The notes under the pieces: generated by a model
Databases searched by the model: none
Seen by the model: only the letters and a program-made list of their open reading frames with translations
What the model was told of the DNA's origin: nothing
In this document: one piece after another, positions 34,669-43,391 of the stretch
Layout of the letters: each line of letters starts with the position of its first letter
Position numbering within the stretch: the stretch's first letter is position 1
Program-made: the position numbers and the translations under genes
Source of the DNA: Candidatus Vogelbacteria bacterium RIFOXYD1_FULL_46_19
Lineage (GTDB): Bacteria > Patescibacteriota > Minisyncoccia > Phycocordibacterales > XYD1-FULL-46-19
Direction: 5' to 3'
Assembly (NCBI GenBank): GCA_001824825.1
Contig: MHTK01000002.1
Coordinates: 70,020 to 134,019 of the forward strand
Length of the DNA: 64,000 nt

Positions 34669-34906
34669 ATTCCTATTTTACCTTTATTGGTTAGGCTTGT
34701 CAATCCCCCTCATATGGAATGATTCCGCTGACTGGTACCCCCAGGTTTCTCTGCGCTCAAAAGAGCAAAGCCATTCCATGTTTTTTTTGGGGGGGGTGTA
34801 CACCCCCCTGTAAATGTGCTCTAGGAGGGTCCTTAGAGTGGTAGTTTGTCTTGAAGTTGTAATATTGTGCGACTCTTTCTATACTGAATCAACAAAACTA
34901 CTAAAT

Positions 34907-35818
34907 ATGAAACTCATTGAACAACAGAAGCAAGAATTTCTCGACTACTTAGAGATTGAAAAGGGGCGGAGCTTGAAGACTCGCAGTAGTTATGATCGCT
35001 ATTTAAGCCTTTTTTTTAAGCAAACGAAAATCTCGTCCCCGACTGATATTGATGAGAATCTACTTAGAGAGTTTCGTTTGTGGTTGAATCGCCAGCCCGG
35101 TACGACCGGCACCTTGAAAAAAAATACCCAAAATTATTATTTAATTGCTCTTAGAACTTTTTTGAAGTACTTGGCGAGGCGGGGTGTTCCTTCCCTCTCG
35201 CCAGAGCGGATTGAACTGGCTAAAACGCCTGGTCGGGAGATTGATCTCTTAAATGAGGTGGAACTCGGCCGGCTACTTACTATGCCGGCCGACCAAGACG
35301 AAAAAAGTTTGAGAGATAAGGCTATTTTGGAGCTATTGTTTTCGACCGGCCTTCGGGTGTCCGAGTTAACCGGCTTAAACCGTGATTCCATTGACTTGTC
35401 TCGCGACGAGTTTAGTGTGCGAGGGAAGGGTGAAAAAGTGCGGCTGGTATTTTTGTCGCTCGACGCCAAAGAAGCTATTAAGACTTATTTAAAAAAACGA
35501 GTTGATATTGAAGAGGCTCTATTTGTGAGTTTAAAAAATAAAGTCGGTGATGCTCCGACTCGCCTCACTTCTCGTAGTGTGGAAAGAATAGTGAAGTTTT
35601 ACGCTACGAAGGCGGGTATTGGCAGTAAGGTTACCCCGCACACCATTAGGCATAGTTTTGCGACTGACCTCTTACAAAATGGGGCTGATATCCGCTCGGT
35701 GCAAGCTATGTTGGGCCACTCGAGCGTGGCCACTACCCAAATATATACTCACGTGACCGACAAGCACTTACGAGAGATTCATCAGAAATTTCACAATCGT
35801 AAAAATACTGGCTCTTAA
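34907..35818 (+). CDS. XerC/XerD-family tyrosine recombinase
   Basis: STGLRVSEL, VRGKGEKVR, TPHTIRHSFAT, LGHSSVATTQIY; ATG at 34907. Confidence 0.93.
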   Translation: MKLIEQQKQEFLDYLEIEKGRSLKTRSSYDRYLSLFFKQTKISSPTDIDENLLREFRLWLNRQPGTTGTLKKNTQNYYLIALRTFLKYLARRGVPSLSPERIELAKTPGREIDLLNEVELGRLLTMPADQDEKSLRDKAILELLFSTGLRVSELTGLNRDSIDLSRDEFSVRGKGEKVRLVFLSLDAKEAIKTYLKKRVDIEEALFVSLKNKVGDAPTRLTSRSVERIVKFYATKAGIGSKVTPHTIRHSFATDLLQNGADIRSVQAMLGHSSVATTQIYTHVTDKHLREIHQKFHNRKNTGS

Positions 35819-36139: not shown

Positions 36140-37612
36140 CTACTTGACACCGTGACGCTGACGAATTTTTTTTAGCTCCTTATTCTCGGTCTCACTCTTT
36201 TTTTCTTTACCTTGGGCGGCTAGTTTGGCTAATTCTTTATCCCCCAATTCATTAAGATCTTTAGCTCGGTTTAATAAGTATTCCTTGGTATTTTGGGTGG
36301 GCTCGTCGAGTACCTCTTCCAATAGAGCATGCAAAATTTGCCCGATTTGGGGACCAGGTTTCACGTGCAACTCGTTCATTAAGTCATTCCCGTCAATTTT
36401 TAGCATAGTGACCGAGGTGGGGCTACGCAAGGCCTCTTCAATCATCGATTCGTATTTTCTCAAGCGATAAGGGTGTTCCTTGGGCCGGCCCATACCGATT
36501 CGGTCGCTGGTGCGTAGCTTCATCAAGTCCCAGACATTGTTCTCCCCCACTTTGGCTATAATTCGGCGGACGGCTGACAAGGTAATTTGATCAACATCCA
36601 CAAAAAACATATGGTTTCTAACCAGTTTTTCCACCACCTCGGCAGTTTTAGACGGGTATTTTAGGTCGGCCATAATTTTCTGTACCAGTCGCGCTCCCAC
36701 TACCTCATGACCGTAAAAGGTCCAGTCATTTTTCTCTTTAATCCAGCGCCTGGTGGCTGGTTTACCAATGTCATGAAACAGAGCCGCTAGACGTAGGTGA
36801 AGGGGGAAGTCTCTCTCAGCGGCGTGTTGCAAAGCTCGGAGCGAGTGTTCCCAGACATCAAAGATATGATCCCCGTTTTGCTCAGTGCCGATTGCTGGTA
36901 CTAAGTCGGGTAAAACGTGCGGTAAAAGTTCAAGCTTGGAGATAAGCTGTAGACCCATCATTGGTCTTTTAGACATAATAATCTTGTTAAATTCTTCACG
37001 CAGTCTTTCTTTAGAAATCCGTCCGAGTAAGCCCGCCTCTGCCTCGATGGCTTGCTCAGTCACCGGGTCAATACTAAAGCCTAGCTCGGTAGCCAAGCGG
37101 ACAGCCCTAAGCAGGCGCAAGGCATCTTCGCGGAAGCGCTCGGTGGGTGAGCCGACGGTTTTGATGATCTTGTCCTTTATATCAGCTACTCCCCCAAACA
37201 GATCAATAAGTTGTCCTTTATCAAGATTATAGGCTAGGGCATTAATGGTGAAGTCGCGACGAGCTAAATCATCTTCTATCGATTCGGCAAAGTGGACTTG
37301 ATCTGGGTGGCGGTGGTCAGTGTACTCAGATTCAGTGCGGTATGGAGTAACCTCGACATTTTTTAAAGTTGGGTCATCGGTGTCCTCATTCACGATTGTG
37401 ACTGTGCCGAAGCGGTTTTCGTAAAAAGTCTTAGTAAATAAGGCCTCAATCTCAGAGGGAGTGGCTTTGGTAGTAATATCCCAGTCTTTAGGTTCGCGGT
37501 TCATTAGGCTGTCACGAACACAGCCTCCCACAATAAAAGCCTCAAAACCAGCATTTTCCAGGGTTTTGGTTATACGTGAAACTTCTTTTGGGACTGGTAA
37601 CGATATTTTCAT
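36140..37612 (-). CDS. cca: CCA tRNA nucleotidyltransferase with HD domain
   Basis: VGGCVRDSL..KDWDITT, RRDFTINA, FREDALRLLRAVR, LFHDIGK; ATG 37612 (the longer ORF runs through a tRNA). Confidence 0.9.
   Translation of the reverse strand: MKISLPVPKEVSRITKTLENAGFEAFIVGGCVRDSLMNREPKDWDITTKATPSEIEALFTKTFYENRFGTVTIVNEDTDDPTLKNVEVTPYRTESEYTDHRHPDQVHFAESIEDDLARRDFTINALAYNLDKGQLIDLFGGVADIKDKIIKTVGSPTERFREDALRLLRAVRLATELGFSIDPVTEQAIEAEAGLLGRISKERLREEFNKIIMSKRPMMGLQLISKLELLPHVLPDLVPAIGTEQNGDHIFDVWEHSLRALQHAAERDFPLHLRLAALFHDIGKPATRRWIKEKNDWTFYGHEVVGARLVQKIMADLKYPSKTAEVVEKLVRNHMFFVDVDQITLSAVRRIIAKVGENNVWDLMKLRTSDRIGMGRPKEHPYRLRKYESMIEEALRSPTSVTMLKIDGNDLMNELHVKPGPQIGQILHALLEEVLDEPTQNTKEYLLNRAKDLNELGDKELAKLAAQGKEKKSETENKELKKIRQRHGVK
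36357..36372. promoter_or_regulatory. parS-like site within cca
   Basis: GGTTTCACGTGCAACT versus consensus TGTTTCACGTGAAACA. Confidence 0.6.
37568..37583. promoter_or_regulatory. parS-like site within cca
   Basis: GGTTATACGTGAAACT. Confidence 0.5.
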
Positions 37613-37636
37613 AAAGAAACTAGTACTCCACTTGTG

Positions 37637-37708
37637 TGCTCTCGGAGGGACTCGAACCCCCAACGACGGTTCCGAAGACCGTTGTGATATCCATTTCACC
37701 ACGAGAGC
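37637..37708 (-). tRNA. tRNA-Arg (UCG)
   Basis: GCTCTCG/CGAGAGC acceptor stem; ACGGT-CTTCGGA-ACCGT anticodon arm; GGTTCGAGTCC T-arm; no encoded CCA. Confidence 0.95.
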
Positions 37709-37952: not shown

Positions 37953-37989
37953 CAAAAAACCAGGTTAAAACCTGGTTTTTTGTGGTTAG

Positions 37990-38060
37990 TGCGGGTAGGG
38001 AGAATCGAACTCCCGACTCGTCCTTGGCAAGGACGTGTTCTACCACTAAACCATACCCGC
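37990..38060 (-). tRNA. tRNA-Gly (GCC)
   Basis: GCGGGTA/TACCCGC acceptor stem; CGTCC-TTGCCAA-GGACG; GTTCGATTC T-loop. Confidence 0.95.
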
Positions 38061-39059: not shown

Positions 39060-39455
39060 ATGACGGCGAAAGCTCGATTGGGAGCCCTGGGGGAACAGGT
39101 AGCGGCTAAATATCTAAAGCAAGCCGGCTTTAAAGTGGTGGCACAAAATTACCGGAAACCCTGGGGAGAAATTGACCTAGTGGCTACTAAAGGAGGAAAT
39201 CTTCACTTTGTGGAAGTGAAAACAGTCACTAAAGCCGAGAATGTTTTACATGAAACAGGGGAGCAGGGTGATGATTATGAGCCGGCCGACAATATTCACC
39301 CCTGGAAGTTGAAGCGCCTGGCTCGGGCGATGGAAAGCTTTATGCTTGATCAGAACATTCCCGAAGAGGTGGACTATCAGTTGGATGCCATTTTGGTCTA
39401 CTTAAGCCCTAAGGAGCAGGTGCTTAAAATAGAGTATTTACCGGATATTTTTTAG
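39060..39455 (+). CDS. YraN-family (UPF0102) endonuclease-like protein
   Basis: LGALGEQVAAKYL, NYRKPWGEIDLVA, FVEVKT. Confidence 0.92.
   Translation: MTAKARLGALGEQVAAKYLKQAGFKVVAQNYRKPWGEIDLVATKGGNLHFVEVKTVTKAENVLHETGEQGDDYEPADNIHPWKLKRLARAMESFMLDQNIPEEVDYQLDAILVYLSPKEQVLKIEYLPDIF
39242..39257. promoter_or_regulatory. parS-like site within the YraN gene
   Basis: TGTTTTACATGAAACA, 2 mismatches to consensus. Confidence 0.6.
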
Positions 39456-39519
39456 TAAATTGGTCATAAAAGTGTTGGTTTTTTAAGAAGTTTCGTGTTA
39501 CGATGGGGGAGTTAAAAAA

Positions 39520-39707
39520 TGGGACGTGGTGTAACGGCTAACATTTTTGGTTTGCCTGTCCGCCAAAGCCAGAGCCGGGACGTGGTGTAACGGCTAACAT
39601 TCTCGGTTTGGGACCGAGCGATTCCGGGTTCGAATCCCGGCGTCCCGAAAGGGGGCGATGGCAGGTGGGGGACCGAGCGATTCCGAGTTCGAATCTCGGC
39701 GTCCCGA
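39520..39707 (+). other. Interrupted outer tRNA-Pro (5' half 39520-~39552, 3' half ~39668-39707) enclosing a palindromic element and a full tRNA-Pro
   Basis: Both halves are near-copies of the inner tRNA; the break is in the anticodon loop. Confidence 0.85.
39576..39648 (+). tRNA. tRNA-Pro (UGG), nested inner copy
   Basis: CGGGACG/CGTCCCG acceptor stem; CTCGG-TTTGGGA-CCGAG; CCGGG-TTCGAAT-CCCGG. Confidence 0.93.
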
Positions 39708-39711
39708 CAAA

Positions 39712-39755
39712 AAAACCACCAAAGACTCCGCTTAAGCGGGGTCTTTGGTGGTTTT
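39712..39755 (+). terminator. Terminator after tRNA-Pro locus
   Basis: AAAACCACCAAAGACTCCGC-TTAA-GCGGGGTCTTTGGTGGTTTT. Confidence 0.85.
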
Positions 39756-43282: not shown

Positions 43283-43353
43283 GCGGGATTAGTTAAATGG
43301 TATAATATCAGTTTTCCAAACTGAGGTTGGGAGTTCGATTCTCCCATCCCGCA
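43283..43353 (+). tRNA. tRNA-Gly (UCC)
   Basis: GCGGGAT/ATCCCGC acceptor stem; TCAGT-TTTCCAA-ACTGA; GTTCGATTC. Confidence 0.95.
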
Positions 43354-43391
43354 CAAACCACAAAAGACCGGATTTTAACCTGGTCTTTTTT

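Follow-up and report, generated by a model that had tools for sequence, protein, structure and literature searches.

A tRNA-Pro gene nested within a second tRNA-Pro gene on a probable gene-less palindromic cassette in a Vogelbacteria genome

In the genome of Candidatus Vogelbacteria bacterium RIFOXYD1_FULL_46_19, an intact tRNA-Pro(UGG) gene lies between the two halves of another tRNA-Pro(UGG) gene, flanked on both sides by the arms of a palindromic repeat. This nest is real, recurs in related bacteria and is apparently undescribed in bacteria, and it is read here as tRNA-targeting selfish DNA rather than as a new kind of intron. With a probability of roughly 80%, the nest arose by DNA-level insertion of a gene-less cassette and has a working inner gene inside an outer shell that has ceased to decode. 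The initial annotation, made from the letters alone, had offered two readings: an element that inserts into an essential tRNA gene while carrying its replacement, and a precursor with a tRNA inside an intron. The first of these holds up, on account of arms that match free repeats, the landing of 7 of 7 cassettes in cognate shells, a target rule on the DNA strand and the position of the shell at the resident locus.

Such nests imply that a selfish repeat of 40 bases can occupy an essential single-copy gene by bringing a whole replacement gene with it, and they give streamlined genomes a way to replace tRNA alleles in place. Nests also mimic tRNA introns and are at risk of being misannotated as spliced genes with false anticodons, a fate that this locus narrowly escaped. 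New in this analysis are the identity of the arms, the corrected 35/36 register, the arm-strand rule and the empty-site allele.

Anatomy of the nest and its resident gene

The window, which is the whole stretch of 64,000 nt that was analyzed, belongs to an assembly (the source genome, G000) of 708 kb in 8 contigs that is 99% complete. All parts of the nest lie on the plus strand. It begins with the 5' half of the shell (39520..39554), corresponding to positions 1-35 of the resident tRNA-Pro(UGG), and continues with a left arm of 21 nt (39555..39575) that is the 5' half of the genome's palindromic repeat and begins like its 12 free copies. The intact tRNA-Pro(UGG) follows (39576..39648; positions 1-73, CCA not encoded), called by ARAGORN and scoring 61.6 bits against Rfam RF00005. 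The right arm, also of 21 nt (39649..39669), is the 3' half of the repeat and shares its terminus with the free repeats at C4:6364-6405 and C6:243671-243710, as well as with the arms of other nests. The 3' half of the shell (39670..39707) corresponds to positions 36-73 and is followed by a 20-bp hairpin ending in a T run (39712..39755), which is likely an intrinsic terminator as read from the sequence. In front of the nest, a putative leader with an extended -10-like motif (39496..39519) resembles the leaders of un-nested loci (L164, L166, L167, L168 and L021); a consensus scan of the locus called neither a sigma-70 promoter nor a terminator.

The insert of 115 nt (39555-39669) thus consists of a complete tRNA-Pro(UGG) between two arms and contains no ORF. 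The outer halves abut exactly at 35/36, with no target base lost or doubled. When they are rejoined, the outer tRNA differs from the inner one at 5 of 73 positions, namely C1T, C27T and C29T in the 5' half and the T-stem pair G52A/C62T in the 3' half, and all five differences are G:C to A:T. The inner gene is identical at 72 of 73 positions to the un-nested genes of two other genomes (G338 and G333).

As judged from gene order and sequence, the outer halves are shown to be the resident tRNA-Pro(UGG) gene at its old position. The marker of this locus is a YraN/UPF0102 gene (39060..39455, plus strand; Pfam PF02021, E 7.5e-19), a conserved upstream neighbor that is not part of the cassette: it precedes tRNA-Pro(UGG) in many family relatives, and un-nested loci have this nuclease-like gene too. 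The shell begins 64 nt past the yraN stop; among relatives, the five whose YraN proteins are most similar (58-60% identity) have an un-nested tRNA-Pro(UGG) that starts 55, 56, 62, 63 and 100 nt past it, behind a similar leader. An un-nested allele at the same locus in G338 has C at positions 1, 27 and 29, which makes the three T's of the shell the derived state. The pair C1-G72 is present in all 57 intact Pro genes of the fetched loci, and two G-U pairs in the anticodon stem in none of them, whereas the shell in the window has U1 and two such pairs. Four genomes (G021, G336, G337 and G339) have the CCGAG/CTCGG T-stem of the shell in an intact Pro(UGG) gene at this locus, so that it is probably an older allele.

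The initial annotation had pointed to three C>T changes that leave G-U pairs and to a compensatory pair in the T-stem. The five differences are exact, but as evidence of selection on the outer copy they appear weak at best, since the T-stem allele also occurs in intact relatives. Any C>T change in a G-C pair gives G-U, and all five changes are G:C to A:T, so that the pattern is no proof of selection on the shell. In simulations with five random G:C to A:T changes, 6% of the trials produced no mismatch and spared the six invariant bases, a share that reached 14-28% when the strand bias towards C>T was set at 2 to 5; in 11-16%, two of the changes fell on the partners of a single pair.

Other features of the neighborhood were observed as well. 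A tyrosine recombinase gene (34814-35818, plus strand) and a gene of the CCA-adding/poly(A) polymerase family (36140-37702, minus strand) lie 2-5 kb upstream of the nest; the recombinase, the nearest one to the nest, is 3.7 kb away, beyond two other tRNA genes. Downstream of both the tRNA-Gly(GCC) gene (37989-38060, minus strand) and the tRNA-Gly(UCC) gene (43283-43354, plus strand) stand a hairpin and a stretch of over 60 bases that is identical between the two. Most tRNA genes of the source genome have a similar downstream repeat with an inverted copy of their own 3' end. Just 3' of the un-nested tRNA-Pro(UGG) of G338 (L164), a stretch matching the right arm of the window at 15 of 18 positions is followed by a fragment with the CTCGG T-stem allele, and by its sequence this locus is possibly a collapsed nest.

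Palindromic arms, recurrence and cognate cargo

The arms of the cassette match a palindromic repeat that is present in 12 distinct free copies with conserved asymmetric ends in the source genome. Read on one strand, the free repeat begins with CCTGCCCGCC and ends with GGCAGGCGGG, and the right arm ends in this same terminus with one C>T change. Consequently, the G run that had been read as the anticodon GGG belongs to the repeat. The left arm is identical at 18 of 21 positions to a left arm that carries Pro(CGG) (L274) and at 19 of 21 to one that carries Pro(GGG) (L278). L274 lies in a genome of another family (G031) and is also a cassette of 115 nt, with near-identical arms, at 35/36; its shell is 100% identical to its Pro(CGG) cargo. 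In G118, which belongs to another family too, the same left arm carries Pro(GGG) and is inserted at 39/40, in the anticodon stem. The arms shared with the G031 and G118 cassettes place the break in the window at 35/36, so that clean removal rebuilds UGG. The excision at 33/34 proposed initially, with GGG as its product, does not agree with this register.

Free copies of the repeat inside tRNA 5' fragments of the source genome are clean insertions without duplication, and 11 of the 12 free copies are preceded by a purine. A related type of arm, ending in GGGTGAAG, costs the target a few bases at the junction and leaves its anticodon destroyed. The initial annotation had also described the arms as pairing into a stem with the inner tRNA at its apex. 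The arms can indeed pair, but the pairing is weak (-18.0 kcal/mol, equalled by 145 of 1000 shuffles) and the register given has a probability of about 0 in the ensemble of a 191-mer. In the precursor, ViennaRNA gives the inner acceptor stem a probability of about 0 and the nested fold -74.7 to -76.0 kcal/mol, against -81.5 kcal/mol for the minimum free energy fold, and in the preferred fold the right arm captures the 3' acceptor strand of the inner tRNA.

A search for left arm, T-loop and right arm, in which a shell was not required, found 7 cassettes in 401 genomes of the order, including that of the window. All 7 sit in the shell of the isoacceptor that they carry (5 according to ARAGORN, run on the joined outer halves, and 2 by visual inspection). 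Together with 11 earlier loci chosen for a second T-loop, they form a set of 18 cassettes, which are not independent, as 4 with Thr(CGU) and 3 with Arg(UCU) may each represent one lineage. The insertion sites are 35/36 (10 cassettes), 34/35 (1), 39/40 inside the stem (1), 23/24 (4) and 21/22 (2). The arms run one way in 12 cassettes and the other way in 6, with the cargo always in the orientation of the shell. On the arm strand, the preceding base is a purine and the following base is G or T in all 18, and no such purine|G/T rule was found on the tRNA strand of these cassettes. A target rule that holds on the arm strand only, together with varied sites and both orientations, indicates DNA insertion and not intron splicing. 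The anticodon of the rejoined shell equals that of the cargo in 13 of the 18, which are all that ARAGORN called cleanly; the other 5 rejoined shells gave no ARAGORN call or low-score miscalls.

The half-full-half layout, for which the initial annotation had proposed a wider search, recurs at many tRNA genes of related bacteria with tiny genomes. A scan of a genome contig collection gave 104 matches, 8 of them with a tRNA and 4 of these true nests, including 2 duplicates of known ones; records with the same layout carry the titles Patescibacteria group, Ca. Vogelbacteria and Ca. Paceibacterota. Among 8 matches in a metagenome scan, 3 were true nests and 1 of these was a duplicate. A viral scan with the nest pattern gave a single chance match, and in a phage collection the only match was one of 56 nt to an ordinary tRNA-Pro. 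A narrow junction-motif pattern matched only the source genome among 301 genomes of the order and is too narrow to gauge prevalence, while a paired T-loop pattern was found in 12 of 43 genomes of the family and in 126 of 251 of the class, many of these matches being tandem genes or one-sided scars.

By script, 50 two-sided nests were recognized among 284 intact tRNAs, covering 20 anticodons and 12 amino acids, in an enriched sample that gives no frequency. The loci comprise 30 obtained directly with the class scan, 60 of its other listed matches that were picked by eye as arm-like, and the earlier loci; the script returned 51 rows, of which L160 (a 3'-half repeat at the tRNA-Gln of the source genome, no nest) was left out. 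L143 is a double nest, and in G024 (L154, minus strand, about 810-1600) three nests stand in a row, with Pro CGG, Pro GGG and Arg CCG, the last split in the D-loop. The inner and shell alleles of Pro(GGG) in G011 (L153) and G024 (L154) are reciprocal.

The shell, splicing and the assembly

Instead of having stopped working, the outer halves could stay paired after the inner tRNA has been cut out, as a selected two-piece tRNA-like RNA that lacks an anticodon and serves as a decoy, a processing aid or an aminoacyl carrier. This is considered unlikely. Acceptor and T stems are free of mismatches in 35 of the 50 shells, often with alleles unlike those of the cargo, and these perfect stems fit recent inactivation as well as continued selection. 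In the source genome, the change in the outer T-stem affects both partners of a pair and compensates fully, and the outer acceptor stem has a probability of about 1 in the precursor. In a Pro(UGG) nest elsewhere (L039:1482-1658), the shell has a continuous helix of 12-13 bp in place of its anticodon arm, with intact ends and perfect acceptor and T stems. As a group, however, the shells pair less strictly. Of their 600 acceptor and T-stem pairs 21 are mismatched, while the matching inner genes have 4 mismatches in 600 pairs and the intact genes taken together 10 in 3408. The shell rate is about 12 times that of intact genes (Fisher p 3.5e-11 against intact genes and 8e-4 against inner genes, with kin that are not independent), and the counts can err either way, as detection favors tRNA-like shells and double nests are perhaps mispaired. 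Moreover, further repeats have been inserted into several shells (L143, L152, L153 and L172), some shells have lost halves, and C1 is the sole invariant base lost in the shell of the source genome. The nest is also absent at this locus in six of the seven family G genomes and in most family members, which argues that such an RNA is dispensable. A shell that no longer decodes and drifts thus remains the preferred reading.

It is very improbable that the locus holds no mobile cassette at all and that two ordinary integration scars, or a local duplication, flank one tRNA gene by chance. Scars do occur in the source genome. Fragments of the 5' part of tRNA-Lys(CUU) (two), tRNA-Asn and tRNA-Gln(UUG), each split by the same palindromic repeat, lie upstream of intact genes (repeat-interrupted 5' fragments at C4:5776-6088, C6:180901-181160 and C8:21093-21345), a further 5' fragment precedes tRNA-Thr(UGU), and one-sided scars are exemplified by the 3'-half repeat and displaced 3' half behind the tRNA-Gln(UUG) gene on C8. 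In the nest, by contrast, the fragments join at 35/36 without a base missing or repeated and the spacers together make up a single repeat, one half each, and chance flanking is contradicted by near-identical arms with other cargo in other families (G031 and G118).

According to the intron reading, the insert is removed from RNA, so that the outer tRNA is spliced to Pro(GGG) at 33/34 or to a second Pro(UGG) at 35/36 and the inner tRNA is freed from the intron. The supply of proline tRNAs gives some reason to consider it. The inner gene is the sole intact proline tRNA among the 39 tRNA genes of the assembly, and CCC makes up 22% of the proline codons in long ORFs. The initial annotation had raised the question of a separate tRNA-Pro(GGG) gene, and none was found in the assembly. 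Genes for tRNA-Trp, Tyr, Leu(CAA), Val(CAC), Arg(CCG), Pro(GGG) and Pro(CGG) are all missing from this inventory, which is incomplete despite the 99% completeness, and a search of the source genome for hidden genes or halves of these tRNAs found none. Among 20 family genomes that are at least 97% complete, 10 have no GGG match and 6 have UGG only by hand count, some of which may be explained by gaps. Judging from these gene inventories, the need for a separate Pro(GGG) is not apparent.

The insert itself does not look like an intron. A group I intron requires a catalytic core (P3-P7) of roughly 200 nt or more, its 5' exon ends in a U that pairs with a guide G, and the intron ends in G. With 73 of its 115 nt taken up by the tRNA, the insert has about 42 non-tRNA bases and cannot hold such a core. 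It does end in G, but the last base of the 5' exon is G, A or C in all 18 cassettes and G35 at 35/36. The splicing endonuclease EndA (PF01974) and the ligase RtcB (PF01139) gave 0 hits each in the source genome, which is 99% complete and yet has gaps, as tRNA-Trp and tRNA-Tyr are missing. No Rfam intron model matched at E<=1 in the window locus or at the gathering score in 5 related loci. Inspection of arm cofolds revealed no bulge-helix-bulge at the junctions; the would-be central helix consists of G-U pairs only and there is no second bulge. In addition, the cargo anticodon equals the rejoined shell anticodon in 13 of 13 clean ARAGORN calls, GGG is the end of the repeat, and the sites and arm orientations vary. 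The rejoined shell in the window likewise reads UGG, as does the inner gene, so that the locus does not support a precursor yielding two isoacceptors. The recurrence of 35/36 in 10 of 18 cassettes and the tRNA-containing tRNA introns proposed in Lak phages (PMC6784885) would suit splicing, and the intron reading is nevertheless hardly credible. Insertion of a cassette at the DNA level is therefore preferred.

An assembly artefact, which 35- and 38-nt near-identical repeats within 190 bases might have suggested, has next to no probability, as unitigs from two samples cross the nest with 0 differences, the inner and outer copies differ at 5 sites and the same layout is found in many independent assemblies. 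In run X1, possibly from the source sample, a unitig covers the whole nest stretch, and in run X5, from another sample of the same study, a unitig covers 39178-39754; runs X7 and X11 cover the nest only in part. The nested structure described initially is thus confirmed, both by these spanning sequences and by the ARAGORN and RF00005 matches of the inner tRNA. The X1 and X5 runs also contain a short unitig of another organism that joins a tRNA-Pro 3' end straight to a tRNA-Pro 5' end (joint 39648 to 39581; head-to-tail or circular).

Known systems and a possible mechanism

Multiple known systems share properties with the cassette. Group I introns are found in bacterial tRNA anticodon loops, including those reported for 35/36 in Patescibacteria, and archaea have bulge-helix-bulge introns and split tRNAs. 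Like these group I introns, the cassettes are inserted in the anticodon loop, with 35/36 as their commonest site. Unlike group I and bulge-helix-bulge introns, they lack a catalytic core, a U-G at the 5' junction (G35) and a bulge-helix-bulge, no EndA or RtcB was found, and they occur in both orientations and at sites in stems as well. Integrative elements use tRNA genes as attB sites, often in the anticodon loop, restore gene function and leave dead fragments. Such elements carry a 5' or 3' part of the gene, rebuild a hybrid gene with one displaced fragment and encode an integrase, whereas the cassette carries a whole gene, displaces both halves and encodes nothing.

REPINs are doublets of REP sequences whose movement depends on RAYT transposases (Bertels and Rainey 2011, PMC3116915). 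Both REPINs, as described in the accessible part of that text, and the cassette are short, imperfect, non-autonomous palindromes with inverted arms around a spacer, present in several copies per genome and inserting into each other. The cassette repeat further has extragenic palindrome copies, no target-site duplication and a short signal (a purine in 18 of 18 cassettes). In contrast to REP/RAYT systems, it does not flank the Y1 gene of the genome and has only 12 free copies. The spacer of the cassette is a functional gene matched to its target, and the accessible REPIN text (PMC3116915) has 0 occurrences of 'tRNA'. By analogy, the cassette resembles a REPIN-type non-autonomous element crossed with a tRNA-restoring integrative element, while lacking a defining property of each.

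SegB of phage T4 is a free-standing GIY-YIG homing endonuclease of a tRNA cluster (PMC2330249). According to the accessible text, it spreads regions with tRNA genes through a nuclease that recognizes tRNA gene sequence, and in the source genome a GIY-YIG gene lies beside tRNA-Thr(UGU). SegB, as described there, differs in recognizing a T-loop motif and moving its own gene; the cassette has no nuclease gene. In Lak megaphages, a possible tRNA has been predicted inside the intron of a tRNA-Thr(UGU) (Devoto et al. 2019, PMC6784885; bioRxiv 10.1101/356790). As far as the accessible text goes, both this intron and the nest have a tRNA-like sequence within an insertion that splits a tRNA gene, and alleles with and without the insertion. 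The Lak case is one locus in a phage, is called an intron and has an inner tRNA that is termed "possible", with no palindromic arms, cognate cargo or mechanism given in that part of the text; the nest belongs to a bacterium, whose one intact proline tRNA gene is the inner one. On this partial text, the Lak intron is the closest published layout, and the layout of the nest is so not without precedent. No description of nested tRNA genes in bacteria was found in the literature searched, the coverage of which is incomplete, and the main text of a paper on huge phages (PMC7162821) has 0 occurrences of 'intron'.

In the proposed mechanism, a gene-less DNA cassette of 115 bp, composed of the halves of a REP-like palindrome with tRNA-Pro(UGG) in the loop, would enter the resident single-copy gene at 35/36. 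A single transcript would run from the old promoter to the terminator, and RNase P and 3' trimming would free the inner tRNA, which would then read all proline codons. The split outer gene would stop decoding and drift. The cassette would be tolerated in an essential gene because the replacement comes along, and the new inner gene would again be a target, which could give rise to double nests.

A two-base target rule alone would not by chance give 7 of 7 cognate landings, so that the matching of the cargo needs a further mechanism, beyond ordinary REP or integrase biology. The odds are about even that the cassette travels whole and reaches the cognate gene by homology or homing, perhaps aided by small tRNA-linked GIY-YIG nucleases; divergent and reciprocal inner and shell alleles favor such delivery. 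Building in place, through repeat insertion and template-switch repair from an intact copy, is somewhat less likely and is favored by the identical shell in G031 and by short overlaps of the repeat loop with tRNA ends. Capture from a processed tRNA through an RNA step is doubtful. The cargo ends at +1 and 73 in both the source genome and G031 without shared flank, which points to a processed tRNA as the template, although gene conversion would look alike. A more speculative proposal is that of an undescribed gene-less element of Patescibacteria, in which the palindrome copies or captures the attacked tRNA (from +1 to the discriminator) and the cargo finds the cognate gene and rescues the host; through repeated rounds, "Russian-doll" nests would build up and tRNA alleles would be replaced in place. 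If true, this would amount to a target-duplicating or cargo-guided insertion mechanism, possibly with processed tRNA as the template.

Several genes of the source genome could assist in such a process. There are two small free-standing GIY-YIG genes, neither of them in the cassette. One of these, of 79 aa (C6:243816-244230, minus strand), lies between a repeat-interrupted 5' fragment of tRNA-Thr(UGU) and the intact gene, on a segment flanked by direct repeats of about 60 bp that take in the promoter and the tRNA 5' end. A single Y1 transposase gene (PF01797) on C7 is flanked by a different repeat, and no copy of the cassette's palindromic repeat was found on that contig. The GIY-YIG genes and the Y1 transposase are no more than candidate helpers. 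A reverse transcriptase of 333 aa (C6:198460-199071, minus strand), which adjoins a scaffold gap and has no link to the nest locus, presumably has motifs of the DGR type. On the same contig, a lone tRNA- or tmRNA-like 3' piece with a T-arm and an acceptor strand (C6:33643-33696, minus strand) is located behind a TATAAT and is unlike the tmRNA on C5.
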